DNA of 64,000 bases, taken from Thermoanaerobaculia bacterium. Its GTDB lineage: Bacteria; Acidobacteriota; Thermoanaerobaculia; Multivoradales; UBA5704. Shown here in pieces: positions 6,484-42,426 of this stretch. Under the pieces are notes generated by a model. That model had not been told where the DNA came from. It made no database searches and worked only from the letters and a program-made list of their open reading frames with translations. The translations under genes were made by a program, and so were the position numbers. Each line of letters begins with the position of its first letter. Positions within the stretch are counted from its first letter, which is position 1. The DNA is taken from NCBI GenBank assembly GCA_035644215.1, contig DASQPA010000125.1, forward strand, positions 1,472 to 65,471, given 5' to 3'.

Positions 6484-6940
6484 TCCGGAACGACTTCGGG
6501 AGCGCCGGAACCGTTTCCGGAGCCTCCGGAACGACTTCGGGAGCGCCGGAACGGTTTCCGGAGCCTCCGGAACGACTTCGGGAACGTCCGGAACGGTTTC
6601 CGGAGCCTCCGGAACGACTTTGGGAGCGTCCGGAACCGTTTCCGGAGCCTCCGGAACGACTTCGGGAACGCCCGGAACCGTTTCCGGAGCCTCCGGAACG
6701 ACTTTGGGAATGCCCGGAACCGTTTCCGGAGCCTCCGGAACGACTTCGGGAACGCCCGGAATCGTTTCCGGAGCCTCCGGAACGACTTCGGGAGCGTCCG
6801 GAACGGTTTCCGGAGCCTCCGGAACGACTTTGGGAACGCCCGGAACCGTTTCCGGAGCCTCCGGAACGACTTTGGAAGCGTCCGGAACGGTTTCCGGAGC
6901 GTCCGGAACGACTTTGGAAGCGTCCGGAACGGTTTCCCGG
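6484..6940. repeat. tandem array, about 11 copies of a 41-42-bp unit built from two 21-nt half-units (TCCGGAACGACTTCGGGAGCG + TCCGGAACCGTTTCCGGAGCC)
   Basis: Read directly from the sequence. The first two copies are 41 nt (GCGCCGG) and later copies are 42 nt (GCGTCCGG). Each half-unit contains a CCGGAA-N4-TTCCGG inverted repeat. All six frames are open across the array. Confidence 0.9.
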
Positions 6941-6975
6941 AGGAGCGCCTCCGCCGCCGCTTGTCGCCCGCTCCG

Positions 6976-7005
6976 TTGACAGCGAGCGCTGCCCTTTGCT
7001 AGCCT
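6976..7005 (+). promoter_or_regulatory. possible sigma70-like promoter for the tRNA-Val pair (weak)
   Basis: TTGACA at 6976-6981. A poor -10 (TAGCCT, which keeps T1/A2/T6) lies 18 nt downstream. This is about 55 nt upstream of the tRNA. Confidence 0.2.
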
Positions 7006-7061
7006 TCCCCACTCTTAGAGGGGCGCGGAGGGGCGGCGGTCGAAGCCGAAGTCGGGAATAC

Positions 7062-7138
7062 AGGCCCGTAGCTCAGTTGGTTAGAGCGCTACGTTGACAT
7101 CGTAGAGGTCAGCGGTTCAAGTCCGCTCGGGCCTACCA
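7062..7138 (+). tRNA. tRNA-Val (anticodon GAC)
   Basis: Cloverleaf read by hand. The acceptor is AGGCCCG/CGGGCCT, the D arm GCTC..GAGC, and the anticodon stem CTACG/CGTAG with loop TTGACAT. The T arm is AGCGG-TTCAAGT-CCGCT, followed by discriminator A and an encoded CCA. Confidence 0.9.
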
Positions 7139-7294
7139 TTCACCGGGGTATTGGAGCCTAAGATCGTCGGCAGGCCGCAACCGAGAACGCAGCGGATAGA
7201 GAGACATCGGAGATACCAACCCAAGCCCGTGCTGCCTGCTTCCTACTCTCCCACTGTCCGATCGGCCGGAGCCCCCTTGTCCAGTTTCCTGTTC

Positions 7295-7371
7295 AGGCGC
7301 TTAGCTCAGCTGGTTAGAGCGCTACCTTCACACGGTAGAGGTCATCGGTTCGAGTCCGATAGCGCCTACCA
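7295..7371 (+). tRNA. tRNA-Val (anticodon CAC)
   Basis: Cloverleaf read by hand. The acceptor is AGGCGCT/AGCGCCT and the anticodon stem CTACC/GGTAG with loop TTCACAC. The T arm is ATCGG-TTCGAGT-CCGAT, with an encoded CCA. Confidence 0.9.
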
Positions 7372-7435
7372 TCCCCCCCGCTCGTGACCTGCCCTGCGGG
7401 CCCCGGCCCGAGCACGTCCGTCTTTTAGCAGTATT

Positions 7436-9391
7436 ATGGAGGCTATGCCCACGGCCCTGGAGGCCCTTCGACTGACCCTGCCCGACGGCTCCGTACGGGA
7501 GGTGGTGCCCGGCACCACCCCGCTCGCGGTGGCCGCCACCATCGGTCCACGCCTGGCGAAGGACGCGATCGGCGCCGAGCTCGACGGCAGGAAGGTCGAC
7601 CTGCGCCTGCCTCTCACCCAGGGCGGGGCGTTCCGCATCTTCACCGCCAAGAGCCCGGAGGCCGGCGAGTTCATCCGCCACAGCGCCGAGCACGTGCTGG
7701 CCGATGCCGTCAAGCGCCTGTGGCCCGAGACCGAGATCGACGTCGGGAGGAAGGACCACAGCGAGAAGTTCCAGTACGACTTCCGCTTCCCGCGCGCCTT
7801 CACCCCCGAGGACCTGACGGCCATCGAGGCCAAGATGCGCGAGATCCTGAAGGAGGAGGGGAGCTTCGAGCGCCAGGAGCTGTCGCGCCCCGAGGCCGAG
7901 GCGCTGTTCCGGGAGATGGGCGAGACCCTGAAGGTCGAGCGCCTGAAGGACATCCCCCCTGGCGAGCCGATCACCCTCTACCGGCACGGCTCCCCGGCGC
8001 GCTTCACCGACCTCTGCCGCGGCCCCCACGTCCAGCGGCTGTCCCAGATCGGCGCCGTCAAGCTGTTGGAGTCCTCGGGCGTCTTCTTCAAAGGCGACGA
8101 GGCCAACGAGCGGCTGCAGCGCATCTACGGCACCGCCTTCGCCACCCAGGAGGAGCTCGATCGCTACCTCGCCCAGATCGAGGAGGCGCGGGCGCGCGAC
8201 CACCGCCGGATCGGCCAGGACCTGGACCTCTTCAGCTTCGATCCGGTGGCGCCGGCCTCGCCGTTCTTCCACCCCAAGGGGGCGGCGATCTACAACGGCC
8301 TCGCCGACTACATCCGCGATCTCTACCGCCGCTATGGCTACGGCGAGGTGCTGACGCCGCAGATCCTGGACGTCGAGCTGTGGAAGACCTCGGGGCACTA
8401 CGCCAACTACAAGGACGCGATGTTCTTCACCGAGGTCGACGAGCGCCAGTTCGCCGCCAAGCCGATGAACTGCCCGACCCACTGCCTGATCTACGCCACC
8501 CGGATGCGCTCGTACCGCGACCTGCCCATCCGCTACGCCGACTTCGGCCGCCTCCACCGCTACGAGAAGAGCGGCGTCACCTCGGGCCTCTTCCGCGTCC
8601 GCTCGTTCGCCCAGGACGACGCCCACATCTTCTGCACCGACGACCAGGTCGAGCCGGAGGTGGTGGCGGTGGTCGAGATGATCCGCGAGGTCTACGAGAC
8701 CTTCTCCTTCGCGAGCTTCGAGATCGAGATCGGTACCCGGCCGGAGAAGTCGATCGGCACCGCCGAGGTGTGGGCGCGGGCCGAGGGCAACCTGCAAGCG
8801 GCGCTCACCAAGCGGGGCGTCCCGTTCAAAGTGAGCCCCGGCGAGGGCGCCTTCTACGGGCCGAAGATCGACTTTCACGTCCACGACGCCCTGGGGCGCA
8901 GCTGGCAGCTCGGCACCGTCCAGCTCGACTACCAGATGCCCGAGCGCTTCGCCCTCACCTACGTCGGGGCCGACGGCGCCGAGCACCGGCCGGTGATGAT
9001 CCACCGCGCCATGCTGGGATCGATCGAGCGTTTCATGGCGATCCTGCTCGAGAACACGGCGGGCGCCCTGCCGGTCTGGCTGGCGCCGGTGCAGGCGGAA
9101 GTGCTGCCGCTCTCCGAGAAGTTCCTGGGCTATGGCGAGGAGGTCCGCGCGGCTCTCGTGGCCGCCGGCCTGCGCGCCGAGCTCGACACCAGAAACGAGA
9201 AGCTCGGCTACAAGATCCGCGAGGCCCAGCTCCAGAAGGTCCCCTTCATGCTGGTGGTAGGGGGGCGCGAGGAGGAGGACCGCACGGTGTCGGTGCGACG
9301 GCGCTCCGGGCCGGACCTGGGGGCCATGCCGATCGAAACCTTCGTCACACGTGTACACGACCTCGCCAGGACCCGGAGCAATGAGCTCTAG
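7436..9391 (+). CDS. thrS: threonine--tRNA ligase
   Basis: 651 aa with an N-terminal TGS-like segment and class II aaRS core motifs. It sits at the conserved position ahead of infC. Confidence 0.95.
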   Translation: MEAMPTALEALRLTLPDGSVREVVPGTTPLAVAATIGPRLAKDAIGAELDGRKVDLRLPLTQGGAFRIFTAKSPEAGEFIRHSAEHVLADAVKRLWPETEIDVGRKDHSEKFQYDFRFPRAFTPEDLTAIEAKMREILKEEGSFERQELSRPEAEALFREMGETLKVERLKDIPPGEPITLYRHGSPARFTDLCRGPHVQRLSQIGAVKLLESSGVFFKGDEANERLQRIYGTAFATQEELDRYLAQIEEARARDHRRIGQDLDLFSFDPVAPASPFFHPKGAAIYNGLADYIRDLYRRYGYGEVLTPQILDVELWKTSGHYANYKDAMFFTEVDERQFAAKPMNCPTHCLIYATRMRSYRDLPIRYADFGRLHRYEKSGVTSGLFRVRSFAQDDAHIFCTDDQVEPEVVAVVEMIREVYETFSFASFEIEIGTRPEKSIGTAEVWARAEGNLQAALTKRGVPFKVSPGEGAFYGPKIDFHVHDALGRSWQLGTVQLDYQMPERFALTYVGADGAEHRPVMIHRAMLGSIERFMAILLENTAGALPVWLAPVQAEVLPLSEKFLGYGEEVRAALVAAGLRAELDTRNEKLGYKIREAQLQKVPFMLVVGGREEEDRTVSVRRRSGPDLGAMPIETFVTRVHDLARTRSNEL

Positions 9392-9430
9392 GCGCTGGGG
9401 CGGGGTTGCTCTCTAGGAGGTGAGCTCAAC

Positions 9431-9988
9431 CTGAGTATCGACAAAACGACGCGCGTCAATCACCGTATCCGGGTTCGGGAGGTCCGCCTCATCGAATCCG
9501 ACGGCAGCCAGGCTGGGATCGTGCCGATCGAGGACGCCTTGCGGCGGGCCACCGAGCAGGTGCTCGACCTGGTGGAGGTGGCCCCGGCCGCGGTGCCGCC
9601 GGTCTGCCGCATCATGGACTTCGGCAAGTTCCTCTACCAGCAGAAGAAGAAGGCGCACGAGTCGAAGAAGAAGCAGAAGATCGTGCACGTCAAGGAGGTC
9701 AAGTTCCGGCCCAACATCGACGAGCACGACTACGACTTCAAGCTGAAGAACGTGCTCCGCTTCCTGGAAGAGGGGGACAAGGTCAAGGCGACCGTCCAGT
9801 TCCGGGGACGCGAAATGGCGCGGACCGACCTCGGCCGCAAGCTGATCCAGCGGGTCACCCAGGACGTGGGGGAGCGAGGAGTGCTAGAATCGTCGCCCGA
9901 AATGACGGGGAACCGGATGCATGCCATTCTGGGTCCGCCAAGGCAGAAGTCTTCGAAGAAAGAGGGCTCGGAGTCGAGCCCCCAATGA
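9431..9988 (+). CDS. infC: translation initiation factor IF-3
   Basis: The ORF tool begins at an internal ATG (9521). The in-frame upstream sequence encodes the canonical IF3 N-terminus (..RVNHRIRVREVRLIESDGSQAGIVPIEDALRRA). AGGAGG sits at 9415-9420. The likely start is non-AUG (CTG at 9431 or ATC at 9437), as is usual for infC. Confidence 0.85.
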   Translation: MSIDKTTRVNHRIRVREVRLIESDGSQAGIVPIEDALRRATEQVLDLVEVAPAAVPPVCRIMDFGKFLYQQKKKAHESKKKQKIVHVKEVKFRPNIDEHDYDFKLKNVLRFLEEGDKVKATVQFRGREMARTDLGRKLIQRVTQDVGERGVLESSPEMTGNRMHAILGPPRQKSSKKEGSESSPQ

Positions 9989-10017
9989 CGTGAGAGGCTA
10001 AAAAAGGAGGGCAACCC

Positions 10018-10212
10018 GTGCCCAAGCAGAAGACGCACCGGGGTGCCGCGAAGCGGTTCAAGGTCACGGCGGGCGGCAAGGTGACGCGTCACCAGTCGAT
10101 GCACAGCCACATCCTGACCAAGAAGACCACCAAGCGGAAGCGCCACCTGCGCAAGTCCGTCGTGGTCTCGCCCGCGTTCGCCGGCATCATCAAGGAGATG
10201 CTGCACCTGTAG
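10018..10212 (+). CDS. rpmI: 50S ribosomal protein L35
   Basis: [22 protein letters not shown]... It starts at GTG with AGGAGG upstream. Confidence 0.95.
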
Positions 10213-10365
10213 AAACAGGGCAGAACACAAAAACGTCCGGCCACCGGTGGGAATGGACCTGTCCACCGGGGCCGCGGCTCCCGGCCGGCCCAGAAGGGTC
10301 CGGACGCGCGGGCCACTGATCGCTCCACCGCCCCATGGGCCGGGAGCAGAAACGAGGTTCCGAAG

Positions 10366-10758
10366 ATGGCACGTGTCAAGCGTGGCAATAAGAGGAAGGA
10401 ACGCCGCAAGAAGATCCTAGGCCTGGCCAAGGGCTTCTACGGCATGAAGTCGAAGGCCCACCGCATCGCCAAGCAGGCGGTGGACAAATCCCTGGCCTAC
10501 GCCTACCGCGACCGCCGGCAGAAGAAGCGCCAGCTGCGCTCCCTCTGGATCGTGCGGATCAACGCCGCGGCGCACCTCCACGGCCTCTCCTACAGCCGCC
10601 TGATCGCGGGTTTGAAGGCCGCCGGCTCCGAGCTCGACAGGAAGGTCCTGGCGGACATCGCCGTCCGCGACCCGCAGGCCTTCGCCGGCATCGCCGAGGC
10701 GGCCAAGCGCGCCTTGGGCTCGGAGAGCGCGGCTCCCGCGGCCCCCGCTGGTGCCTAG
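10366..10758 (+). CDS. rplT: 50S ribosomal protein L20
   Basis: [26 protein letters not shown]... with a 19-aa Ala-rich C-terminal tail. Confidence 0.95.
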
Positions 10759-11823
10759 GTGAGCGCAGAGGGAGCGCCGGAGACCCCGGGCACCCCCGGG
10801 ATCTCGGAAGCCCAGCAGCTCGCCCTGGATTTCGAGCGCCAGGCCGTGGCGGTTGCCGACCGCCCGGCCTGGGAGGAGCTGCGCCTGCGCTGGGCGGGGC
10901 GGAAGCAGGGGGTGGTGCGCACGCTCCTCGGCCGCATGGGCGCGGTGCCGGCGGCCGAGCGCAAGGCCTACGGGGCAGCGGTCAACACGCTCAAGGATCG
11001 GGTCGAGGCGCGGCTCGCCGAGCTCGACGCCGAGCTGCTGAGCCGCGAGCGCGACGCGGCACGGCGCCAGGCGGCGGTCGACGTCACCTTACCCGGAAGG
11101 CGGCCGCAACTGGGGGGCGTCCACCCGATCACCCGGGTGATGGACGAGCTCCAGGAGATCTTCTCAGAGCTCGGCTACAGCGTCGCCGAGGGGCCGGAGG
11201 TCGAGGACGACTACCACAACTTCGAGGCCCTGAACTTCCCCGCCGACCACCCGGCGCGCGATACCCAGGACACCTTCTTCCTGAAGAACGGCCTCCTGCT
11301 GCGCACCCATACCTCGCCGGTGCAGATCCGCACCATGCTGGCGCGGAAGCCGCCCATAAGGGTCATCTGCCCGGGGCGGGTCTTCCGCTTCGACAACGAT
11401 CTGCGGCACTCGCCGATGTTCCACCAGGTCGAGTGCCTGGCAGTCGCCGAGGGGATCACCTTCGGGCACTTGAAGGGGACGCTCGAGGCGTTCCTCAAGC
11501 GCCTCTTCTCCCCCGACACCGGGGTGCGCCTGCGCCCGAGCTTCTTCCCCTTCACCGAGCCCTCGGCGGAGGTCGACATCACCTGCCAGATCTGCGGCGG
11601 CAAGGGGTGCGACACCTGCTCGGGGACCGGCTGGATGGAGATCCTGGGCTGCGGCATGGTCGACCCGCGGGTGCTCACCAACTGTGGCATCGACCCCGAC
11701 CGCTACAGCGGCTTCGCCTTCGGCCTCGGGGTCGATCGGGTGGCGATGAACCGCTACGGCTTCCCCAACATCCGCGTCTTCTTCGAGAACGACGAGCGGC
11801 TCCTGCGGCAGGTGCGCGGCTGA
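10759..11823 (+). CDS. pheS: phenylalanine--tRNA ligase alpha subunit
   Basis: Carries the FPADHPARDTQDTFF and class II motifs. It starts at GTG immediately after the rplT stop. Confidence 0.95.
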   Translation: MSAEGAPETPGTPGISEAQQLALDFERQAVAVADRPAWEELRLRWAGRKQGVVRTLLGRMGAVPAAERKAYGAAVNTLKDRVEARLAELDAELLSRERDAARRQAAVDVTLPGRRPQLGGVHPITRVMDELQEIFSELGYSVAEGPEVEDDYHNFEALNFPADHPARDTQDTFFLKNGLLLRTHTSPVQIRTMLARKPPIRVICPGRVFRFDNDLRHSPMFHQVECLAVAEGITFGHLKGTLEAFLKRLFSPDTGVRLRPSFFPFTEPSAEVDITCQICGGKGCDTCSGTGWMEILGCGMVDPRVLTNCGIDPDRYSGFAFGLGVDRVAMNRYGFPNIRVFFENDERLLRQVRG

Positions 11824-13916: not shown

Positions 13917-13920
13917 CGCG

Positions 13921-14163
13921 ATGGCGATCGACTGGTTGGACGGACTGGAGGAGAAGGTCCGGGAGGCGACGGAGAGGCTCAAGGAGCTGCGGGAGGAGAA
14001 CCAGGCCCTGGCCCAGAAGGTCGAGGCGCTGGAGACCCGCCTCGCCGCCGTTCAAGAAGGCCATGCGGACGACGCCTCCCAGGCCTGGGAGGCGGAACGC
14101 GAGGAGATCCGCCGGCGGGTGGAGAAGCTGACGCTGGGGCTGGAGGCGCTGGTCGCGGAGTGA
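13921..14163 (+). CDS. ZapB-like coiled-coil cell-division protein (DUF904-like)
   Basis: 80-aa all-helical heptad protein (LKELREENQALAQKVEALETRLAAVQE). It lies directly after pheT and near zapA. Confidence 0.5.
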   Translation: MAIDWLDGLEEKVREATERLKELREENQALAQKVEALETRLAAVQEGHADDASQAWEAEREEIRRRVEKLTLGLEALVAE

Positions 14164-14169
14164 GCCCCG

Positions 14170-14409
14170 TCAGCTGAAGTCGGTCCCGCAGCCGCCCATC
14201 CCCCGGCAGCAGCTGGGAGCCCCGCAGCTCGGGGCGCTCTCCATGGCGCCGCCGCCGGTCGCCGTACTGGCGCTGAACGTCGAGAACTGCTTTTCGAGGT
14301 GCGGCACGCCGCACTTGGGGCAGGCGAGCCCGTCGGCTCCCTGGCCGATCCGCTGCAGGATCTCGAAGCGGTGGTCGCAGTCGCTGCAGCGGTATTCGTA
14401 GAGTGGCAT
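14170..14409 (-). CDS. FmdB-family zinc-ribbon protein
   Basis: MPLYEYRCSDCDHRFEILQ...CPKCG, the classic FmdB CxxC...CxxC N-terminus, with a Cys/Gly-rich tail. Confidence 0.8.
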   Translation of the reverse strand: MPLYEYRCSDCDHRFEILQRIGQGADGLACPKCGVPHLEKQFSTFSASTATGGGAMESAPSCGAPSCCRGMGGCGTDFS

Positions 14410-14442
14410 GGGCGAAGACCTCCTACCTGGTAGGACTCGATT

Positions 14443-15519
14443 TTACCGCATCTGTCGGATGTCTGCCCCGATCAGCTCCCCCATGCCCCCCACCCCGTCC
14501 CGCTCCATGAGCCGCAGGATCTCCCGGTTGATCCGCCGCGGCAGCCCTGGCCCCTGGTAGACGAGGCCGGTGTAGATCTGGACCAGCGAGGCCCCTGCGC
14601 GCAGTCGCCGGTAGGCCTCCTCCCCGGAGTCGATGCCGCCCACCGAGACCAGCACCGTCTTCCCGAAAAGCCGCGCCGCCAGCGCCTGGAGCATCCGGAA
14701 GCTCTTCTCTTGCAGGACCTTCCCGCTCAAGCCACCGAAATCCCGGGCGTCCGGAACGAGGCCGTACTCGGTCGTCGTGTTGGTGGCGACGATCCCCGCC
14801 GCGCCGGATTCCACGGCGATCTCGGCGAGGTCGACCGCCGCCCCGGGATCGAGATCGGGGGAGAGCTTGACCAGGACCGGCTTCCTCGTGATCCCCGTCG
14901 CCATCTGGAGGATCGCCCGCACGAACGTCTCGTTCTGGAGGTCGCGCAGGCCGGGGGTGTTGGGAGAGGAGAGATTGACCACCAGGTAGTCGCCCAAGTC
15001 GGCCAGGCCGCGGACGAGGATCTCGTAGTCCTGTAGCGCTTCCTCCGGCGGCGTGGCCTTGTTCTTCCCCAGGTTGATCCCCAGGGGGAGCGGCGCCGGC
15101 TGCAGGCGAAGCAGCCGCCGCCGCAGAGTCTCCATCCCCCGGTTGTTGAAGCCCATGGCGTTCTGGACGCTCTTGGCGGCAGCGAGGCGGAAGAGGCGGG
15201 GCCGCGGATTGCCGGGCTGGGGCCGGGGAGTCACCGTCCCCACCTCGACGAAGCCGAATCCCAGGGCGGGCCAGGCGCGCACCGCGACGCCATCTTTGTC
15301 GAAACCGGCCGCCAGGCCCACCGGGTTGGGGAAGGTGCGGCCGAAGAGCGTCTGGGCGAGCCGCGGGTCGGTAGCCTGGTTGCGCGCCGCGAAGGCGGGC
15401 AGCCCCGGAACGCCCCCCAGCACCCGGAGCCCCGCCATGGCGAGCCCGTGGCTGGTCTCCGCATCCAGCCTGAAGAGAAGTTGCTTGAAAAATGCGTAAC
15501 CGACCGGGGAAGAGGGCAT
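14443..15519 (-). CDS. pyrD: dihydroorotate dehydrogenase (quinone), class 2
   Basis: 358 aa with FPNPVGLAAGFDKDG and GFGFVEVGTVTPRPQPGNPRPRLFRL motifs. The stop is TAA. Confidence 0.9.
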   Translation of the reverse strand: MPSSPVGYAFFKQLLFRLDAETSHGLAMAGLRVLGGVPGLPAFAARNQATDPRLAQTLFGRTFPNPVGLAAGFDKDGVAVRAWPALGFGFVEVGTVTPRPQPGNPRPRLFRLAAAKSVQNAMGFNNRGMETLRRRLLRLQPAPLPLGINLGKNKATPPEEALQDYEILVRGLADLGDYLVVNLSSPNTPGLRDLQNETFVRAILQMATGITRKPVLVKLSPDLDPGAAVDLAEIAVESGAAGIVATNTTTEYGLVPDARDFGGLSGKVLQEKSFRMLQALAARLFGKTVLVSVGGIDSGEEAYRRLRAGASLVQIYTGLVYQGPGLPRRINREILRLMERDGVGGMGELIGADIRQMR

Positions 15520-15554
15520 GGGCAGGAGGATTCTAGCCCCTCGACCCCCAGCCC

Positions 15555-16004: not shown

Positions 16005-16190
16005 TGCATCCCCTGTGCGGTTCGTGTTGGGTCCCTCGATTGTAGAACCAACATTCAACACTAGGGAGTCTTCTACGCACGTGGCCCGTGCCTGCCTCGC
16101 ATCGACGAGGACGCTAAAGGCTCGTGGGGCGGACACCCACCTGGAGCGTTTCAGGTTCTAAACGCACACCCGCACGGCCGCGCGGGGGGT
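16005..16190 (+). ncRNA. candidate 6S RNA (ssrS-like) in the zapA-rny gap
   Basis: A 325-nt non-coding gap lies downstream of zapA, matching the zapA-ssrS synteny known in E. coli. The 5' GTGCGG...TAGAACC can pair with the 3' GGTTCTA...CCGCAC, giving a long irregular hairpin of about 170 nt with internal bulges. Confidence 0.3.
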
Positions 16191-16266
16191 GTAGTTTCAC
16201 CCTCTCTTTTAGAGGGCTTCTCCCCGATCCGCCCGGACCCCCTGTTGCTGGACAGGGGGTAAACCG

Positions 16267-24551: not shown

Positions 24552-25057
24552 TAGGGTTGTCGCCCCCTACGCGCGTCATTCCCTCTCTGGGCGGCCCCGC
24601 AAGTCGCGATCCCAAACAACGCCGCGAGCGATGCTTTCGCGGATCGTATTCATGTCGTGTCGCGTCACGGCATGAGCGGTTTTTCCCAGGATCCCAAACC
24701 AGGAAGGAATCGGTCTGAGCTCATCTGGAACTTCGATCGTCGCCTTCATAGAGCCAATAAACCGTATTACCGGCTTCCCGTCAAGTCACCGGCCGTCCGC
24801 GGTAGACCGGCGGCGTTGCCGGAACCGACCGCAGGCCGAGCTTGGTCGCCACCTGTGGCAAGCCCACGGCGAGGCGGGGAAACCTTGCCAGAGAAGCAGC
24901 CTCCAAGACCGGCACAGCGCCTCCTACCGCGTCCCTCCCCCCGGGGCGGGGGAGGGTTGGGCCTGGGGGGAGGACAGGAGGGGGGGATCGCGTGGGAGGC
25001 GGGAGAGGCGGGAGGTCCAGCGGAGTTCTCCTGGTCCGCGGCTCCACCTCCCTTGCG

Positions 25058-25320
25058 CGGTGAGCGTGTGCCTGCGCGCAGTGACCGCGTACCTGTACGC
25101 GATAGCCGTGTGCCTGCGCGCGACGATCGCGCGCCTGTACACAGTGACCGTGTGCAGACACGCAATCACCGAGCGCCTGCACGCGTTGACCGCGCGCCTG
25201 TACGCAGTGACTGTGTGCCAGCACGCGATGACTGCGCGACTGTACGCGATCACCGTGTGCCTGCGCGCCGTGATCGCGTACCTGCGCGTGATGACCGCGC
25301 GCCTGTACGCAGAGGCCGCG
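25058..25320. repeat. tandem array, about 12.5 copies of a 21-nt unit (consensus GCGATGACCGCGCGCCTGTAC, alternating with GCGATAGCCGTGTGCCTGCGC)
   Basis: Read directly. The CGCG-rich units carry local palindromes (CGCGTAC-CT-GTACGCG, GCGCGACGATCGCGCGC). All frames are open and the array is intergenic. Confidence 0.9.
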
Positions 25321-25562
25321 TGCAGGGCTCCTTCCCGCGCACCCGCATACCCTGGAGACGTCCTGGTGTCTTAGACCCTACCACGTCGAGAAGGGGTGAC
25401 TGCGCCCGAACAGCTGCCCGGAGAGAGACCGGGCCCCCCTGCGGTACAATCCCCGGACCGCTATGAATCCACCCTTTGCCTGGCCCGAACCCAGAAGTGC
25501 CGCTCACGACAAGCTCCTCTCCGACGTCCAGGGAACAGCGCGTGAGCTGAAGGAGGACGATC

Positions 25563-31742: not shown

Positions 31743-31759
31743 CCGTAAGCCCGCGAGGC

Positions 31760-36400: not shown

Positions 36401-37448
36401 CAGCGGCTGGATGAACCTGCCGGAGCCCCGGAAGCCCTTGGACTACAATGCCTCGCTCTTTGCGCGCGGCGTCTCGATCCGCTACCCCGAGGGGTTCGTC
36501 AACCACGGCAACGCCGACCTCTTCCTGGCCCCCACGGAAGGGGGCGGGCGGAGCCTGCGCGGCTCGGTCGACCTCGACCGCATCTACTACCTGGAAGACG
36601 TGCAGGTCGAGACCCTGGACCTGGTCAAGAAGCTCTTCCAGCGCAGCCGGCTGCAGGTGACGCCGACCAACGGCTTCCTCGCCGCAACCCAGGTCAACGT
36701 CGCGGTCAACGGCAAGGGCGCCCTGCGCGTCCACGACAACGTCGCCGACCTCCACGGCGACGTCGGCCTGACCGTGCGCGGCAGCCTCGCCCGGCCGGTG
36801 GTTCTGGGCAGCGTCCAGATCGATACCGGCGGCAAGCTGGTCTATGCCGACAACCAGTACCGGGTCGAGCGCGGCCAGCTGACCTTCGACAACGCCTACA
36901 AGATCGACCCGGTGCTCGACTTCGTGGTGCGCACGAGGGTGCGCGACTTCGAGATCACGGTCAACTTCTCGGGCACCCTGGAGCGCCCGGTCGCCAATTT
37001 CTCGTCGAACGCCAACCTGGCCGACCTGGAGATCGTGGCCCTCCTCGCCACCGGCCAGGAGCTGCGCGAGGAGGACCGGCTGCGGGCGCTCACCGCCGCC
37101 CCGGGGCAGATCCCGCAGTCGACTCAGCCCAACGTCTCGGCCGGCTCCATTTTAGCCGGCCAGGCGGCCTCGGCTCTCGGCCAGCGGGTGAGCACCCTCT
37201 TCGGCTTCGACCGCTTCCGGATCAACCCGATCGCCGCCGAGACCGGCCAGTCGGTGGGCGGCGTCGGCGTCACCGTCGGCAAGCGCCTGTCGAAGGACGT
37301 CTTCGTCACCTATTCGACCGATCCCACCGCCAGCCGGCAGAACGTGCTCCAGGTCGAGTGGCAGGTGGCGAGCAACGTCACCCTCCTGCTCACCCAGACC
37401 ACCAACAAGGGCTATGCCGTGGACGCGCGCTGGGAGCGGCGCTTTTGA
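33405..37448 (+). CDS. translocation/assembly module TamB-like protein (AsmA/DUF490 family)
   Basis: 1347 aa with an N-terminal TM anchor and a long beta-rich body. The C-terminal DUF490-type end is ...VLQVEWQVASNVTLLLTQTTNKGYAVDARWERRF. Confidence 0.85.
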   Translation: MSAPEPPPPPAPPASPSGPARPGRLRRFVVRPFVWGLVLLVALVVGLYYLIGSRLIQERFTAFAIAQATDFFNRPVKVAGLEYSLFPLAVELRGVVIPGPTPKDPPFATAELLRIQIPWGYLRQRIVRLDQVDAIHPTLFLEFRPDGSTNLPHFRSQGGGGQSRFQLQIGRLLVQRGEFRLNQRRVAFDLAARSIWGRLNGPRPTHLDGLVTAQEVVTSLPDGHPYPATVSGKVILLADRGLLRIPAVRLAGADLKANASGWVSWKGATRVEIQFDATGDARLVNHLGYLDAPLVGPFQVAGGRFSLTNEDWSFAGTATAPRVDFLGRTATAVAGRARGDAKRVHVDVQRATYAGGAAQGTVEVDLATVATPTHPGRPVDLAFDFRGVSIETALAAEQVPIAGLSGEGSGRFTYRFNSAAPLAGSGRANVTLAGRYPATGLPLSGEVPLVFERGVLTSPAIQLTAPGQNATGTLSVDVAAKTGRIDFQLASQDAGPVMRMIPADPGPPAFWRVTAGHGQATGSFGFSPAGLVIDLGLDLADVRSPDPAIVADTVRGTLRVAPRAVENLRLELTQGRGRLAVAGRVPIPGDRPKVPLDDPLTLVVDTVDWPAASIAGYLYPGLPLSISGLVTCRIDLSGSAKSLSSDHTARVTDLVLGGFPLGQARTDVIFDGTVVRLENGVVETPAGKALVQGTFDTAAKAFSFTLDAPALSLTAPPLRDLLPGIGGEVSLAASLDGSPDHPQAMVSARGQGLEIAGRTLGDEGRAELSATWDFAAVRAAGSLLGLVTFDGGGRLDSDGAAVSFNLKSDNLPGLAQLAAQRPLPAFTGALAGQVTAAADFAAKSYRAELTLSDLTARMEGHEIKNVEPVVVVLDPERITLRSFYLREADHGTELFAGGTVGLAGRRPLDLHLQSTIWAGWSKLFSSDFDLDGYVDTLVTVRGTLADPAASGEAVLRDARLIVPGLPSTFDHLEGEARFSGDRIELETLTATFAGGTVRASGWMNLPEPRKPLDYNASLFARGVSIRYPEGFVNHGNADLFLAPTEGGGRSLRGSVDLDRIYYLEDVQVETLDLVKKLFQRSRLQVTPTNGFLAATQVNVAVNGKGALRVHDNVADLHGDVGLTVRGSLARPVVLGSVQIDTGGKLVYADNQYRVERGQLTFDNAYKIDPVLDFVVRTRVRDFEITVNFSGTLERPVANFSSNANLADLEIVALLATGQELREEDRLRALTAAPGQIPQSTQPNVSAGSILAGQAASALGQRVSTLFGFDRFRINPIAAETGQSVGGVGVTVGKRLSKDVFVTYSTDPTASRQNVLQVEWQVASNVTLLLTQTTNKGYAVDARWERRF

Positions 37449-40375
37449 GGTACGGGCGGGTCCTGCTCGCCGGGCTGTGGATCGCGTTCTCGGCGAGCAC
37501 GCGTGCCGCTTGGCCGCAGCCGCCGACCCCGACGCCGGCGATCGACGCCGAGGAGCCGCCGCCCAGCGCCCTGGAGGCCGCGGCGGCCCCCATCGTCGCC
37601 GCGATCGAGGTGCGGAGCGACGCGCCGCTCGCCGACGATCGGGATTTCGACTCGCTCTTGGACTTCACCGTCGGCGAGCCGCTCACCGACCTCCGGGTGC
37701 GGCGCACCCTGCGCAACCTCCAGGCGAGCGGCCGCGGCACCGAGGTCGAGCTCTACACCCGGCCGGCCGGCGAAACGGGGGTGGTGGCCGTCATCGTGCT
37801 GCGCGCCGCCGTCCAGGTCGCCGCGGTCGAGATCGTCGGGATGGCCGCCCCCACCGCCGCCAATACCGCCAATACCGCCACTGCCCCAACCCCCGCCGCC
37901 GGCTCGCTCGGCCTGTCCAGGGACGACCTCTACGACGCCCTCGCCCAGCGCGCCGGCCAGCCGCTCTCGGAGGACCAGGTGCTCTCCGGCGTCCACAACC
38001 TGGAGAAGCTCTACGACGAGCGCGGCTTCCTGGACGCCAAGGTGCGGGTGCAGGTCGCGGTCGATCCGGCGACCCGGCGGGCGACGGTCACCTACCAGGT
38101 CGACAGCGGCCCCCAGGCGGTCGTCGACCGCATCGAGTTCGCGGGAGCGATCGCCCCCTTCCCCCCCCAGGACCTGGAAAAGGCGCTGGCCCTGAAGAAG
38201 GGCTCGACCTTCACCCGTGGCAGCGCCGAGGGGAGCGCCGAAAAGCTCCAGCGCTGGCTCATCTCCCAGCACTACAACCTGGCCCGGGTCCAGCCGCCGC
38301 GGGTCGACTCCGCGTCGGCCGGCAAGGTCCACCTCACCTATCCGGTCGATCTCGGCGCCCGCCTGGAGGTCGAGGTCAAGGGCGCCGCGTTCGACCGGCT
38401 GCAGAAGGACGGCCTCCTCTCCTTCCTGGGACCCGAGGGTTACGACGAGGCCCTGGTGCAGCAGGCGCTGGGCAAGATCAAGGACGCCTACCAGAAGGAC
38501 GGCTACTATTACGTCCAGGCCGACGCGGTGAAGACCCTGGCGGGCGGCGTCCTCCACCTGACCCTGACTGTTCAGCCGGGGGGGCGCTACACCCTGGAGG
38601 GCATCCACTTCCAGGGCAACCAGGGGGTCTCCGACAACGACCTCGCCCATCTCATGGCGGTCTCCGAGAAGCGGCTCCTCTCGCTGGGGAGCGGCCGGCT
38701 GGTGGACTCGGTGCTCGTCCAGGACCTCGACAACATCCGCTCCTACTACGCGAGCCAGGGCTACACCGAGGCCAAGGTCGGCCCGCCGCGGGTCGAGGAA
38801 AAGGGCGACCGGCTGGACCTCACCATCCCGATCGTCGAGGGGGCGCGCCAGCAGGTGGGGCAGATGAAGTTCGAAGGCATCGACGCCCTCGATCTCAATG
38901 CGCTCAAGGCCCAGCTGCCGCTCCACGCCGGCGGCCCCTTCCACCCCGCGCTCCTGGACCTCACCCTGGACGCCGTGCGCTCGGCCTACGCCGACCGCGG
39001 CTTCGACGCCGCCCAGGTCTCGGCGACGCCCGACTGGGATTCGGCCCACACCCGGGTCGACCTCACCATCTCGGTCATCGAGGGGCCGCAGGCGGTGGTC
39101 GACCGCATCATCGTGCGCGGCAACCAGCGCACCCACACCGACGTCATCGTGCGCACCGCCGGCCTGGCGCGTGGCAAGCCGGTCTCCCGGAGCCGCCTCC
39201 TGGAGGCCGAGCGCAGCCTCTATCGCCTGGGGATCTTCTCGCGCGTCAGCGTCGATCTGACCCGTGCCGGGCTCGGGGTTTCGGGGCGCGACGTGATCAT
39301 CCGGGTCGAGGAGGGCAAGTCGAAGACCCTGACCTACGGCCTCGGCTATGCCACCGACGAAGGGATCCGCGCCACCGTCGGCTACACCTACGGCAACGTC
39401 GGCGGCCTGGCCTACAGCCTGTCGACCGACCTCCGCTACTCCCAGCGCCAGGACCGGATCGCCCGCATCCTCTTCGACCAGCCCACCTTCTTCCAGTTCC
39501 CGGTCCCGGTCACCTCGTCGCTCTTCTACATCGTGACCGACGACCCGAACAAGGGTTTCACGGTGACCAAGTACGGGGCGCGCACCCAGGCGAACAAGAG
39601 GATCGGCCACTTGCACTACAGCCTGGGCCTCGACTACCGGGTGGACAAGGTGAAGCTGGACCAGGGCGTGCCGTTGAACAACCTGGAGCGGCAGGACCGC
39701 CCGTACTCCATCGCGAGCGTCATCCCGAGCGTCCTCCTCGACTACCGCGACGACCCGCTGGTGCCGACCCGCGGCTGGAGCTCGCTCCTCCAGCCCCAGT
39801 TCTCGGGCCCCATCCTGGGCTCGGACGCCAAGTTCCTGAAGGTCTTCTTCCAGCAGACGCAGCTCGTGAACCTCGGCCGGCCGGGGGTGCTCGCGGGGGG
39901 CCTGCGGCTGGGGGCGATCGAGCCCTTCCGCACCCTGCCGACCTCCGATCCGGAAGTCGCGGGGCTGCCGTCGAGCAACGTCTTCGTCGACGAGCGCTTC
40001 TTCGCCGGTGGCCCGACCACCCACCGAGCCTACGACCCGGACCTCCTGGGCCTCCTGGGCAAGACTCTCTTCCCCACTCCCGGCAAGACCAACCAGTTTT
40101 CGCCGGTGGGCGGCGACGGGCTGATGCTGGTCAACCTCGACTACCGTTTCCCCATCGCCGGCAGCTTCGGTGGCACCCTCTTCTTCGACAGCGGCAACGT
40201 CTGGGCCGACTGGCGGGACATCAACACCCGCGACCTGAAATCCGGGGTCGGCATCGGCGCGCGCTACGTCTCCCCCATCGGCCCCCTGCGCTTCGACATC
40301 GGCTGGAAGCTCAACCGCGAGCGCGGCGAGAAGGCCTCGCCGGTGCTTTCGTTCTCGTTCGGGAATCCATTCTAG
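37445..40375 (+). CDS. Omp85-family outer-membrane protein assembly factor (BamA/TamA-like) with POTRA repeats
   Basis: The likely TTG start overlaps the tamB TGA and gives the signal peptide MRYGRVLLAGLWIAFSASTRA. A Pro/Ala-rich linker, multiple POTRA-like repeats and a C-terminal beta-barrel ending ...SFGNPF follow. Confidence 0.85.
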   Translation: MRYGRVLLAGLWIAFSASTRAAWPQPPTPTPAIDAEEPPPSALEAAAAPIVAAIEVRSDAPLADDRDFDSLLDFTVGEPLTDLRVRRTLRNLQASGRGTEVELYTRPAGETGVVAVIVLRAAVQVAAVEIVGMAAPTAANTANTATAPTPAAGSLGLSRDDLYDALAQRAGQPLSEDQVLSGVHNLEKLYDERGFLDAKVRVQVAVDPATRRATVTYQVDSGPQAVVDRIEFAGAIAPFPPQDLEKALALKKGSTFTRGSAEGSAEKLQRWLISQHYNLARVQPPRVDSASAGKVHLTYPVDLGARLEVEVKGAAFDRLQKDGLLSFLGPEGYDEALVQQALGKIKDAYQKDGYYYVQADAVKTLAGGVLHLTLTVQPGGRYTLEGIHFQGNQGVSDNDLAHLMAVSEKRLLSLGSGRLVDSVLVQDLDNIRSYYASQGYTEAKVGPPRVEEKGDRLDLTIPIVEGARQQVGQMKFEGIDALDLNALKAQLPLHAGGPFHPALLDLTLDAVRSAYADRGFDAAQVSATPDWDSAHTRVDLTISVIEGPQAVVDRIIVRGNQRTHTDVIVRTAGLARGKPVSRSRLLEAERSLYRLGIFSRVSVDLTRAGLGVSGRDVIIRVEEGKSKTLTYGLGYATDEGIRATVGYTYGNVGGLAYSLSTDLRYSQRQDRIARILFDQPTFFQFPVPVTSSLFYIVTDDPNKGFTVTKYGARTQANKRIGHLHYSLGLDYRVDKVKLDQGVPLNNLERQDRPYSIASVIPSVLLDYRDDPLVPTRGWSSLLQPQFSGPILGSDAKFLKVFFQQTQLVNLGRPGVLAGGLRLGAIEPFRTLPTSDPEVAGLPSSNVFVDERFFAGGPTTHRAYDPDLLGLLGKTLFPTPGKTNQFSPVGGDGLMLVNLDYRFPIAGSFGGTLFFDSGNVWADWRDINTRDLKSGVGIGARYVSPIGPLRFDIGWKLNRERGEKASPVLSFSFGNPF

Positions 40376-40395
40376 GGCAGGAGGGGGCCAGCAGG

Positions 40396-40413
40396 GCCGG
40401 CACCCGATCCGCG
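40396..40413. repeat. 18-bp direct repeat copy 1 (GCCGGCACCCGATCCGCG) flanking brnA
   Basis: A perfect match to 40780-40797. Confidence 0.85.
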
Positions 40414-40464
40414 GGCGCCTCGGCGGCAGCGGTTCCAGGGTTTTCGTGCACGGGTAGGATCGAT

Positions 40465-40716
40465 CTACCCCGTCCGAAGCTCTTCCCGGATCACTCGCCG
40501 CAGAGTCTCTTCCAGCGGCTCGCGCTCCTTCTTGACGTACTCCTGGAGCGCAGCGTTGATCAAGGTCTGGTAGTTGCCGCCGCCAGCAGCATGTACCTTG
40601 TCCTTGAACCACTGCAGCACCTCGTCATCGAGGCGAATGGTGATCCGCGTTTTCCCTGGAGTGGGCGAAACGACGGGGCCGCGCTTTGCCTTGCTGAAGT
40701 CGTATTCTTTCCTCAT
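40465..40716 (-). CDS. BrnA-family antitoxin (type II TA), with no adjacent BrnT
   Basis: MRKEYDFSKAKRGPV...RITIRLDDEVLQWFK...GYQTLINAALQEYV is the typical BrnA sequence. Confidence 0.75.
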   Translation of the reverse strand: MRKEYDFSKAKRGPVVSPTPGKTRITIRLDDEVLQWFKDKVHAAGGGNYQTLINAALQEYVKKEREPLEETLRRVIREELRTG

Positions 40717-40779
40717 CTGCCTACCTCATACTCTCGGCGTTCCCGGCTGGTGGCATTCCGGGGTATAGACCGAACCACC

Positions 40780-40797
40780 GCCGGCACCCGATCCGCG
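40780..40797. repeat. 18-bp direct repeat copy 2 (GCCGGCACCCGATCCGCG)
   Basis: A perfect match to 40396-40413. The pair brackets a 366-bp segment that holds only brnA. Confidence 0.85.
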
Positions 40798-40804
40798 AGA
40801 CAGG

Positions 40805-41041
40805 CTACAACTCGTCGCCGGGGTCCGGAGCGATATCGGGCACCTTTGCGAGCGCGGCCAAGAATTTCTCGCGGCTGCCTTGTCGGGCCCTCTCCTCGAG
40901 GTAGTCGACGGTCATCAAGGCCGCCATCTTCTCCGCGACGGCCGAACTGATGAACTGATTGATCGAGATACCCTCATGCTGGGCGAGATCCCGAACCCGC
41001 TTATGCAAAGAGTCCGGCAACCTGAGACTGAGAGTGCTCAT
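40805..41041 (-). CDS. ribbon-helix-helix (CopG/Arc/HicB-C-like) antitoxin-like DNA-binding protein
   Basis: MSTLSLRLPDSLHKRVRDLAQHEGISINQFISSAVAEKMAAL matches the RHH pattern. Its start overlaps the upstream gene's stop (ATGA). Confidence 0.6.
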   Translation of the reverse strand: MSTLSLRLPDSLHKRVRDLAQHEGISINQFISSAVAEKMAALMTVDYLEERARQGSREKFLAALAKVPDIAPDPGDEL

Positions 41042-41286
41042 CGCTGCTCCTCTACCTCCTCTTCACGCTGCTTCAGATTGGTTTCGACGGCAACCGTCTC
41101 AAAAGCATCCAAGTAATCCGCAGTACCGTGTGTCTCCCAGAATTCGGCCGCCTCTCCGTAACTGGCGAATTCATCCGGCAGCGGTTCAACCTGCTTTTTC
41201 TTGCTCAAGGCGCGCTCTCCCTCTTCCATTAACGCCCCACTTCTGCTACTCTTTCCCACCTTGGGAGGAGCGTCCTCCCAACCCAA
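41038..41286 (-). CDS. CopG_antitoxin-family protein (EFWETH motif; BrnA-related antitoxin class)
   Basis: ...ASYGEAAEFWETHGTADYLDAFETV... is the motif recalled for the PF12441-type antitoxin family. A GGGAGG SD lies upstream. Confidence 0.55.
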   Translation of the reverse strand: MGWEDAPPKVGKSSRSGALMEEGERALSKKKQVEPLPDEFASYGEAAEFWETHGTADYLDAFETVAVETNLKQREEEVEEQR

Positions 41287-41351
41287 TCAAGCGGGGCCGG
41301 CCCGAGCTCGCAACTCGAACCGACCCCTGACCACGCAGAGGAGGCAACCTC

Positions 41352-41879
41352 ATGCGCAGCTCCCACGATGTTACCAGTGTCCCCGCCCCACCCCTCGACA
41401 ACGCCTTCGCCCCTGCCTACCTGGCCCGCCTGCGCGAGCAGGACGACGTCCTGACCGCCGCCGAGGCCGAGCTTGCCGGTCCCTGGAAGATCGAGCCTGT
41501 CCCCGGCAAACCGGGAGCGGTCGCCATTCTTCGTCTGTGGGAGGACCTGGCAATCGGCGATGCTCCCGTCGCCGTCCTCTGGCACCTGGAGACGGCGCGA
41601 CTTCTCTCCGTGCTCCTCCCGGTGCTCGACCGTGAGCCGCTCTTCTATATAGAGGAAGGGGCGGCTTCGGAGGGCTACCCCCTGGTCGCGGTGTTCGGCG
41701 AGCAGGGTCCCCAGGTCGCCGGCTGGCTCGACCGCCACGAGCCGCGGTGGTCCGAGGGACTCCACCTGCTGGAGGCGATCGTCCGCTCGCCTCTCGCCCT
41801 CGCCACCCTGCTCGAAGCGGCCGGGCCGGGCGCCGAGGAGCAGGTCGGGCGCATCCGTGCTCGGCGGCAACGAGCGTAA
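41352..41879 (+). CDS. hypothetical protein
   Basis: 175-aa ORF with GAGGAGG 6 nt upstream and protein-like composition. No recognisable domain. Confidence 0.5.
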   Translation: MRSSHDVTSVPAPPLDNAFAPAYLARLREQDDVLTAAEAELAGPWKIEPVPGKPGAVAILRLWEDLAIGDAPVAVLWHLETARLLSVLLPVLDREPLFYIEEGAASEGYPLVAVFGEQGPQVAGWLDRHEPRWSEGLHLLEAIVRSPLALATLLEAAGPGAEEQVGRIRARRQRA

Positions 41880-42121
41880 GGTCGCTGGAAGCGATTCGAG
41901 AAACAGGGGCGGCGCTCCAAACGCCGCCCCATCGCATTCCTGGCAAGTTGCAGACGGCGGAAGCCGTTCCGCAACCGTCGCGGACATCGCCGCAGCCCCC
42001 GAGAACCCTCCCGCAGTGACCGCCGAACCCTCCAGGATCCTTGGGAAGCCTGATTTCGCGCCCGCGGAGCCCGGCGCGAGCGTCGCGGAGCGCGCCGAGC
42101 GGCCGGAGAGTCGTCCCCAGG

Positions 42122-42426
42122 GCTTCGGGAACGATGGGGAAGACTCCCCTCAAATTGGGGAAGCGTCGCCTGATTTTGGGGAAGGGCTGCCCAATTTCGG
42201 GGGAGTGTTCCCCAATTTCGGGGAACCGCTCCCCGAAGTTGGGGAAGAGTTCCCCAAGATTGGGGAAGTGTTCCCCGAAATCGGGGAGGTCTTCCCCAAT
42301 TTCGGGGAGAGGCTGCCCAATTTGGGGGAAGGCTTCCCTCAAATTGGGGAAGCGTCGCCCAATTTCGGGGAACCCTTCCCCGATTTGGGGGGAGACTTCC
42401 CCAATTTCGGGGGAGGTTTCCCCCGG
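42122..42426. repeat. tandem array, about 15 copies of a 21-nt unit (consensus sTTCCCCAATTTCGGGGAAGn)
   Basis: Read directly. Each unit is a TTCCCC-N6-GGGGAA inverted repeat. The array is intergenic, about 145 nt upstream of the 42572 gene. Confidence 0.9.

Follow-up and report, generated by a model that had tools for sequence, protein, structure and literature searches.

We describe a class of tandem DNA arrays represented by three members, here called A, B and C, in a 64,000-nt stretch of a Thermoanaerobaculia genome (Acidobacteriota; contig DASQPA010000125.1), which we refer to as the window. A, B and C are real, non-coding arrays, and the class to which they belong is defined by a unit length of two helical turns and not by sequence. 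It is previously undescribed, as full-text literature searches returned neither a period-defined, helix-locked class of arrays nor its link to the gene for a 175-aa protein that is found beside many of them. The reading that we tentatively prefer, while holding it short of probable, is that the arrays act at the level of DNA as helically phased, one-face protein-binding or boundary arrays whose register is under selection. The three arrays of the window are as follows.

6484-6942, no strand assigned: array A, 11 copies of a 42-nt (2 x 21) unit with the halves TCCGGAACGACTTCGGGAGCG and TCCGGAACCGTTTCCGGAGCC.
25054-25326, no strand assigned: array B, 13 units of 21 nt, consensus CACGCG-GTGAC-CGCGTG-CCTG.
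42122-42426, no strand assigned: array C, ~14 units of 21 nt, GGGGAAG-N-CTTCCCC-AATTTC.

These are the only tandem arrays of substantial size that a lag-autocorrelation scan finds in the window, and the strongest lag signal of each is a multiple of 21. The 21-nt base period shared by three unrelated arrays, first pointed out in an initial annotation made from the sequence alone, is thus real by both Tandem Repeats Finder (TRF) and autocorrelation. The three sequences recur unchanged in three or four assemblies made independently from one population, which excludes an artefact of assembly. In array A, which TRF reports as 11.0 copies of 42 nt with 93% matches, 0 indels and a score of 727, the first two units are 41 nt long, each 42-mer is made of two 21-nt halves, and the motif T(C/T)C(C/G)GGA (TYCSGGA) falls at offsets 0/11/21/32, a spacing of ~10.5 bp. 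Array B, whose span is given in the reading register, yields TRF rows of 21/42/63 nt with no indels (best 21-nt row 25065-25305, x11.5), and array C rows of 21/42/63/84 nt (21 nt x13.8), the apparent 20- and 22-nt adjacent units of C being the product of a boundary substitution and not of an indel. Reverse-complement symmetry is significant in A (z 4.5) and in C (z 4.6); for B the self-complementarity of 18/21 holds on a hand-derived consensus, the automatic TRF consensus giving no significance (z 0.1). Single-strand folding goes far beyond shuffles in both B (z -10.6) and C (z -11.0). Array A neighbours tRNA-Val genes and thrS; B lies in a 1.1-kb gap between operons, with an asnB-like gene and an amidase gene beside it; and C lies between the 175-aa gene and a DUF4157-leader gene with a Pfam TGL match.

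Exact matches to its proteins assign the window to soil metagenomes, and loci anchored on ThrRS identify the lineage as Thermoanaerobaculia (Acidobacteriota). To place the arrays we surveyed 1.54 Mb, the window included, made up of ~80 thrS loci and ~80 RNase-Y-anchored metagenome loci scanned with TRF and autocorrelation. The related or same-population loci compared with the window carry L-numbers, and a locus was counted within the clade at a ThrRS identity of at least 73% or an RNase Y identity of at least 82% to the window. Many further intergenic arrays came to light in the relatives, with unrelated units and periods of 20-22 or 41-43 nt, and within the clade 23 of the 27 intergenic arrays with a period >12 nt fall into the two-turn class (P ~2e-14). 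Taken together, 37 arrays give 10.45 +/- 0.19 bp per helical turn, and these periods of 20, 21, 22, 41, 42 and 43 nt reinforce the reading of the unit as two helical turns; in 10 of the 37 (20, 22, 41 or 43 nt) the period is not a multiple of 3. Two-turn arrays reach a density of ~31 per Mb in the clade, as against 1.3 beyond it (P ~9e-7), although the thrS loci over-sample one recurrent site and so inflate the former density, which is probably an overestimate. A second contig of the same population (L207-210) carries another array, of 42 nt x8.3. The suggestion of a family extending beyond the window is therefore supported across the related loci, with the amendment that the family is defined by its period. 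Its units are nearly all specific to one locus: those of the window are unrelated to each other, more than 30 arrays of relatives differ, and the only units met with again at another locus are the B-type and the C-type, the latter as ~14 units of GGGGAA-N3-TTCCCC-AATTTC in L165, from another soil sample, with non-homologous flanks. The G+C content of the arrays ranges from 49 to 74%.

Two generalisations drawn from the window alone did not carry over to this larger set. The arrays had been placed just upstream of genes, but members of the class also stand directly behind ymdB, at its 3′ end, in L085 and L109, between two convergent genes in L112 and, as array C does, behind the hairpin that follows the 175-aa gene. 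Dyad symmetry, or hairpin formation, had been put forward as a shared property, but it is absent in about half of the arrays of relatives; it reaches significance in A, C, L052, L011 and L013, to which B can be added on the hand-derived consensus only. Inside a 21-nt array of L025 (943-1025) ARAGORN calls a tRNA-Leu(GAG), which is almost certainly a false positive arising from the repeated hairpins.

L166, a relative at ~80% identity from the same soil, has an array of binding-site-like architecture. L166 is a mosaic of the window modules 50132-50290, 24929-25358 and 41233-41880, followed by an array of 12 forward and 13 reverse units, each consisting of TG(G/T)AGACAC and ~12 variable nt at an exact spacing of 21 nt. 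Across the 25 units conservation is clustered in the invariant TGKAGACAC core while the spacers are free (P = 0.0004), and such clustering of core against spacer is also significant in L010 and L007. The window module homologous to L166 1-155 is itself a compound palindromic element (50129-50289) with perfect 21-nt terminal inverted repeats TCGTAGAGACGCCCAGCCGCT and ~5 GAGACGCC-like cores in both orientations, 4 of them exact matches to GAGACRC; its core resembles that of the L166 array.

Comparison of homologous arrays reveals how they change. All three indels found within alignable homologous arrays are exactly 21 nt long (two between L021 and L022, one between B and its L166 counterpart), and identity by lag uncovers higher-order repeats of 42 nt in A and L025 and of 63 nt in L010, where 21-mers are 64-73% alike. 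The closest view is given by window 24929-25358, which aligns with L166 184-630 (blastn and alignment) and comprises array B together with the following element.

24929-25053, no strand assigned: G-rich tract forming one module with array B, also present upstream of the B-type array in L166.

The first part of this tract (24929-25025), directly upstream of B and co-inherited in L166, is G-quadruplex-like, with runs of G5-G7. Array B and its homolog share 82% identity and are separated by 49 substitutions and the single 21-nt indel. The substitutions, 31 transitions and 18 transversions, are dominated by CG<->TG/CA transitions, which also dominate among the units of B, and the variation looks like CpG decay of an originally (CG)n-rich, alternating purine-pyrimidine unit with Z-DNA potential. 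Changes fall equally on dyad arms and loops, 8 dyad pairs being lost and 6 gained, and 1 of 21 changed pairs is compensatory; the dyads of B, taken initially for sites, are thus no better preserved than the loops between them. Small indels number 0 in the array and 3 in the adjacent 125-nt G-rich leader (P ~6e-4), a leader that is homopolymer-rich and hence indel-prone. Whole-unit indels, together with substitutions spread over arms and loops, indicate that the sequence drifts while the phase is kept. Furthermore, the same intergenic sites (upstream of tRNA-Val, downstream of ymdB and downstream of the 175-aa gene) are re-occupied by unrelated units in different genomes. As intergenic repeats that change by whole units the arrays are minisatellites, or variable number tandem repeats (VNTRs), in the descriptive sense. 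The surroundings of B vary as well, since in L166 the B-type array and its G-rich tract adjoin a different gene; the asnB-amidase neighbourhood is not conserved among the RNase-Y-anchored relatives.

The tRNA-Val site shows this re-occupation most fully. Downstream of array A the window carries the following features.

6976-7005, plus strand: sigma-70-like promoter of the tRNA-Val/thrS unit, with TTGACA at 6976-6981 and an extended -10, TGCTAGCCT, at 6997-7005.
7062-7371, plus strand: tRNA-Val(GAC) at 7062-7138 and tRNA-Val(CAC) at 7295-7371 (ARAGORN, Rfam).
7436-9391, plus strand: thrS, in the same transcription unit as both tRNA-Val genes.

Array A ends ~30 nt upstream of the -35 of this promoter, which a simple consensus scan missed. 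In relatives the promoter takes the form TTGACA-N17/18-TGCTA(G/C)CCT, ~50-85 nt upstream of tRNA-Val(GAC)-tRNA-Val(CAC)-thrS; it is kept upstream of tRNA-Val(GAC) in the 15 relatives displayed, and the tRNA-Val/thrS synteny in 18 of the 18 related loci scanned for tRNAs. A two-turn array lies upstream of tRNA-Val in seven genomes, all of one clade (the window, L007, L008, L010, L021, L022 and L052), ending in each a few tens of nt upstream of the -35, and the units of the other six differ from that of the window, with only L021 and L022 sharing one; L004 carries array A itself in identical form. Sister genomes at 88-92% ThrRS identity differ in the presence of an array at this site or in its unit sequence, and the homology between them ends just upstream of the -35, which places the tRNA-Val-site arrays at synteny breakpoints. 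The conserved neighbour of array A is therefore the tRNA-Val/thrS promoter and not the minus-strand gene on its other side (5962-6423), to which the array had at first been tied. The 153-aa product of this gene carries no Pfam domain and is unrelated to the 175-aa family, and none of the relatives has a homolog of it, which rules the gene out as a conserved partner. The idea that the small array-adjacent genes form one family is likewise ruled out, as the 153-, 156- and 175-aa proteins are unrelated.

The gene that does recur beside the arrays is the one upstream of array C.

41222-41351, plus strand: promoter-like element and ~95-nt structured leader of the 175-aa gene, with TGCTACTCT at 41244-41252.
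41352-41879, plus strand: 175-aa gene, belonging to a lineage-specific, multi-copy family of acidic proteins, just upstream of array C.
41906-41930, no strand assigned: terminator-like GC-rich hairpin, GGGGCGGCG-ctccaaa-CGCCGCCCC, between the 175-aa gene and array C.

Alignment of 10 copies and the boundaries found with nhmmer define a module made of a TGCTAnnnT promoter-like element, the leader, the open reading frame (ORF) and a GC-rich hairpin after the stop codon, with the array just outside. The consensus fold of the leader contains 7 pairs with changes on both sides, and the six close copies with a downstream array have an equivalent hairpin behind the stop codon; the hairpin of the window has its T-rich tail on the minus strand and was hence flagged as a minus-strand terminator. 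Array C thus occupies the space between this hairpin and the next gene. The TGCTAnnnT type of -10 is common to this promoter-like element and the tRNA-Val promoter. The protein, with a pI of ~4.9, has more than 210 close homologs, several per genome, all those with a named source being from Thermoanaerobaculia or Acidobacteriota, and at 50% identity the family as a whole falls into 593 clusters. It has no match in Pfam, NCBIfam, PHROG or PDB and no fold match, and it lacks a DNA-binding fold (ribbon-helix-helix, helix-turn-helix) as well as a nuclease, recombinase, polymerase or rep-like fold.

Eight of 11 distinct copies of the 175-aa gene are followed 20-260 nt downstream by an array of 21, 22 or 42 nt, the unit being different each time (P <= 2e-7 against a conservative intergenic background). 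The eight are listed here.

Window, array C; L166, TGKAGACAC; L200, GGCTCGCGAAAGGAGCCAAGA.
L201, AGGGCACTTCTACAGCCGAAGT x12.5; L203, a 42/84-nt unit; L204/205, TTTCGGAGTCCGAAATGATCA.
L052, a divergent member of the 175-aa family, whose downstream array is the tRNA-Val-upstream array.
L010, a fragment of the 175-aa gene flanked by an array on either side.

Two of the three remaining copies have arrays within 2 kb upstream. L206 carries two tandem copies, at 1224-1832 and 2998-3543, with no array after either, and in L211, a distant family member, the contig ends 41 nt past the gene. The proteins are up to 85% identical, yet their downstream arrays differ, and the 67-75% DNA identity between paralogs within one genome indicates that these are old copies and not recent transpositions. 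The association is asymmetric: most arrays have no 175-aa copy nearby, and searches with nhmmer and hmmsearch around A, B and the other tRNA-Val and ymdB arrays turned up no remnant of the module. Toxin-antitoxin genes are frequent around the module. Three antitoxin-like genes (BrnA, HicB/CopG-type and CopG-type) lie just upstream of it in the window at 40465-41286, with no recognised toxin partners among the ORFs scanned, and toxin-antitoxin genes also flank it in L202, L203 and L206. The only transposase-like neighbour seen is a 150-aa Y1_Tnp gene of IS200/IS605 or RAYT (REP-associated tyrosine transposase) type, ~500 nt upstream of the module in L204 (2032-2484) and L205 (2031-2483).

What level the constraint acts on can be narrowed. 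Translation of the arrays as heptad-repeat peptides, with 21 nt read as 7 codons, would agree with the window periods, which are multiples of 3 without net indels, and with the gene callers, which place a 102-104-aa protein across array B (window 25060-25374; L001-L003; three assemblies) in a frame whose G+C at third codon positions is coding-like (0.89). A, B and C are indeed open in several frames on both strands, but this is expected at 70% G+C, and the palindromic units produce mirror-image ORFs on the two strands. Coding repeats are ruled out by the two 41-nt units of A, which shift the frame, by the periods not divisible by 3 and by the lack of any signature of codon positions; no array varies with a period of 3, and in B the G+C-rich 'third' position is the least variable. 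The peptides have only 2 database relatives each, themselves arrays, and the database proteins P0001-P0004, like the ORF on B, are annotation artefacts. We regard the peptide reading as barely credible.

It is also quite unlikely, in our judgement, that the arrays serve as transcribed chains of RNA hairpins, whether as 3′ stabilisers of the kind formed by repetitive extragenic palindromic (REP) elements and bacterial interspersed mosaic elements (BIMEs), as CsrB-like protein sponges or as small-RNA substrates. The strong self-complementarity and folding of the window arrays speak for such RNAs, as do the position of several arrays just downstream of genes and the frequency of GGA motifs in the units, although the base composition alone would lead one to expect that frequency. 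Palindromic units, however, are missing from about half of the class, and nothing in an RNA would require it to hold a period of 10.45 bp per turn. G.U versus A.C mismatches show no strand bias (G.U on the plus against the minus strand 30:20 in B, 14:11 in C), compensation is nearly absent, purine and GC skew relative to adjacent genes is inconsistent (of opposite sign at the same site in L007 and L021/22), array A lies upstream of a promoter in a divergent region, and the arrays behind the 175-aa gene are separated from it by a terminator-like hairpin; selection at the RNA level is thereby disfavoured. At the gathering threshold Rfam finds only the 6S RNA and two tRNAs in the whole window, and a permissive Rfam scan of 41150-42600 gave only sub-threshold matches to hairpin models.

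Intrinsic curvature from phased A/T tracts is ruled out as a general signal, since the 10.5-bp A/T-versus-G/C harmonic is not enriched and ranks first only in C, L010 and one L109 array. Searches of plasmids and viruses lend no support to a mobile-element origin: array A has no plasmid match in PLSDB, and viral contigs in IMG/VR hold no arrays of the A or C unit, all C-unit matches being single occurrences. The initial view that the arrays are neither clustered regularly interspaced short palindromic repeats (CRISPR) nor REP elements is borne out. The units are contiguous without spacers, even L166 alternating a core and spacer of ~10 + 11 nt, and no cas genes occur among the few array-adjacent genes scanned with Pfam; the units differ by locus, whereas REPs and BIMEs disperse one unit in high copy, and no RAYT gene adjoins A, B or C among the called and Pfam-scanned neighbours. 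With the RNA-level, curvature and mobile-element readings disfavoured, a DNA-level constraint on phase remains.

We propose a model in which the helical register of the units would present the same features along one face of the DNA, with one half-site per 10.5 bp in the dyad-symmetric arrays of the window. The arrays would sit at boundaries between transcription units and would grow, shrink and turn over by whole-unit slippage or unequal exchange, giving rise to the 42-, 63- and 84-nt higher-order repeats. Such an array could form a cooperative, one-sided platform for an abundant nucleoid-type architectural protein of weak sequence specificity, and the role of the platform may be that of a boundary, an insulator or a scaffold placed upstream. 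Array A, at approximately -65 to -530 of the tRNA-Val/thrS promoter, would then resemble an upstream activating sequence (UAS), and array C would form a boundary past the terminator-like hairpin and before the next gene. This model draws on the period bias, the clade restriction, the phase kept despite drift and the binding-site-like cores of some members, and further on the evidence for DNA over RNA, the unit types recurring at non-homologous loci and the recurring boundary sites; from these we infer protein binding and a boundary or scaffold function, and no more firmly than that.

Several observations weigh against the model. No binding protein for the arrays has been identified, and the only associated gene encodes an acidic protein without a DNA-binding fold. 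The diversity of the units would require either many specificities or a protein that reads shape. Sister genomes at 88-92% ThrRS identity can be array-less, so the function, if any, is dispensable. The clustering of conservation into core and spacer is not significant in A, B or C, the 10.5-bp harmonic has a mean rank of 6.1 against 5.5 expected over 23 arrays (p = 0.87), and the inflated density given above tells in the same direction.

The alternative that we take most seriously, although we consider it somewhat unlikely, sees in the arrays minisatellites without adaptive value, either neutral or selfish. On this account a mutational process peculiar to the lineage and measuring by a two-turn ruler would repeatedly duplicate ~21 bp of any local sequence, after which the arrays would expand and decay. 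Candidate mechanisms are slippage or mis-repair on protein-wrapped DNA and the fill-in of nicks staggered by two turns, and the 175-aa family or a co-encoded factor might act preferentially in cis, a variant in keeping with the eight of 11 gene copies that have their own, different array outside the module even where the proteins are up to 85% identical. Arbitrary, locus-unique units, rapid turnover with sister genomes differing in array presence, occurrence at synteny breakpoints and in every intergenic context, arms of B that evolve as fast as its loops, the higher-order repeats typical of satellite DNA and the restriction to one clade are all in line with such minisatellites. The 175-aa protein, however, has no nuclease, recombinase or polymerase fold, most arrays have no 175-aa gene nearby, small indels are depleted within B, the invariant cores and free spacers of L166, L010 and L007 point to selection on sites, and the B-type and C-type units recur at non-homologous loci; moreover, we know of no bacterial mechanism that gives 21-bp duplications. 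Mutational minisatellites therefore account well for sequences that are arbitrary and turn over fast and for the association with the gene, and less well for the cores, the indel depletion and the recurring units. A further prospect, which we hold to be doubtful, is that of a new kind of prokaryotic repeat, set by geometry, in which dedicated clade-specific machinery makes or maintains arrays of arbitrary local sequence with a ruler of exactly two turns, is linked to the 175-aa module and has the arrays serve as boundary or landmark elements of the chromosome. Very unlikely, finally, are REP or BIME elements spread by a RAYT (Y1) transposase, or iteron or centromere remnants of plasmids or phages, possibly serving as decoys that titrate replication or partition proteins. 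The tandem palindromic units, the head-to-head half-arrays of L166 that resemble parC, the Y1_Tnp gene near one module (L204/205), the B-type and C-type units at non-homologous loci and the location of arrays in variable regions rich in toxin-antitoxin genes all favour such an origin, and iterons typically have a period of 21-22 bp. Against it stand units that are unique to their locus and do not form one high-copy family, the lack of rep, par or RAYT genes next to A, B and C, the negative plasmid search for A and viral searches for the A and C units, and positions that recur beside core genes (tRNA-Val/thrS, rny-ymdB).

Among known systems the arrays may work most like iterons or the sopC/parC centromeres, and array A like Fis-type upstream regions, though by our analysis they would belong to none of these. 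Iterons (R6K, P1, F, pPS10, lambda ori) are tandem 17-22-bp units spaced ~21-22 bp apart on one helix face; their sequences differ between replicons while the period is conserved, and some have a conserved core and a variable remainder. Our arrays share the two-turn spacing, with periods of 20-22 nt, the constancy of period across differing sequences and, in L166, the core and variable remainder. Iterons, however, come as 3-9 copies by a rep gene with an A+T-rich region and DnaA boxes, a context that is missing at A, B and C, whereas here there are 11-25 copies, ~31 arrays per Mb and core genes alongside. The initial comparison with iteron or operator arrays or nucleoid-protein platforms accordingly stands as a reasonable analogy of working, although the analysis turned up neither a binding protein to go with the arrays nor a rep or par gene. 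Plasmid centromeres include sopC of F, with 12 x 43 bp carrying inverted repeats, parC of R1 and parC of pSK41, with 20-bp repeats. Array A, at 11 x 42 bp with inverted repeats in each unit, is architecturally very close to sopC, the helical phasing would allow cooperative one-face coating by protein, and the half-arrays of L166 recall parC; the difference lies in the many arrays per chromosome, their differing units and the lack of parA, parB, parR or parM nearby, no partition genes having been found among the called and Pfam-scanned neighbours of the window arrays or of the 11 module loci. A Fis dimer occupies ~21 bp, and A together with the arrays of L007, L008, L010, L021, L022 and L052 lies directly upstream of a strong tRNA promoter as phased, weakly conserved dyads. 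Fis regions, however, have 3-5 sites in ~150 bp, while these arrays have 7-22 units over 150-460 bp and are absent in sister genomes. Two-turn arrays also occur where no promoter exists, and B, C and most others are not UAS-like, phased sites directly upstream of a stable-RNA promoter being found at A and the six relatives only.

The remaining comparisons are with repeats of chromosomes and extrachromosomal elements. Mycobacterial interspersed repetitive units (MIRUs) measure 40-100 bp, form sequence-related families and are often in frame with flanking ORFs. The arrays resemble MIRUs and VNTRs as intergenic tandem repeats that change by whole units and have higher-order structure, but to our knowledge no helix-locked period across unrelated sequences has been described for MIRUs or minisatellites, and full-text literature searches likewise returned none. 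Borg repeats, both intergenic and genic, are near-perfect, A-rich, of many unit lengths and lineage-specific with fast turnover, and an active mechanism has been proposed for them; lineage-specific abundance and rapid turnover are shared, whereas Borg repeats are not known to show quantisation by the helical repeat or a link to a specific small gene. REPs make up high-copy families defined by sequence, 20-40 nt long and tagged with GTAG or CGTC (PMC3733652). Like REPs and BIMEs, which are thought to affect supercoiling and mRNA ends, the arrays are intergenic tandem palindromes, often at operon ends, with the same sites clustered, but they are defined by period, vary in sequence from locus to locus, are non-palindromic in half of the cases and have no RAYT gene adjoining A, B or C.

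Bacterial repeats such as REPs, CRISPR, MIRUs and iterons are normally defined by sequence, whereas the two-turn class is defined by a period, and the 10.45 bp per turn that follow from it coincide with the helical repeat of B-DNA. If selection maintains this period, the arrays offer a natural experiment in how DNA can be recognised, or a chromosome organised, by phase and independently of sequence, in a soil phylum that is major but little studied; if it is mutational, they imply an unknown duplication mechanism with a two-turn ruler; and if dedicated machinery is at work, they represent a repeat system without a described counterpart. Either way, a family of unknown proteins numbering 593 clusters gains its first genomic handle. 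In practice, two-turn arrays break short-read assemblies and yield spurious ORFs, such as the 104-aa ORF on B, and false tRNA or hairpin-RNA calls, and the pseudo-proteins derived from them can serve as handles by which to find further arrays.

Two minor features of the window complete the description. The asnB-amidase gap that holds array B also contains a 57-aa ORF on the minus strand (24576-24749; MKATIEVPDELRPIPSWFG...), which has no Pfam match and which, by eye, looks like a small protein of AbrB or antitoxin type. The 6S RNA gene, which scores 72.1 bits in Rfam, occupies 16007-16192 and closely precedes the RNase Y-ymdB operon.

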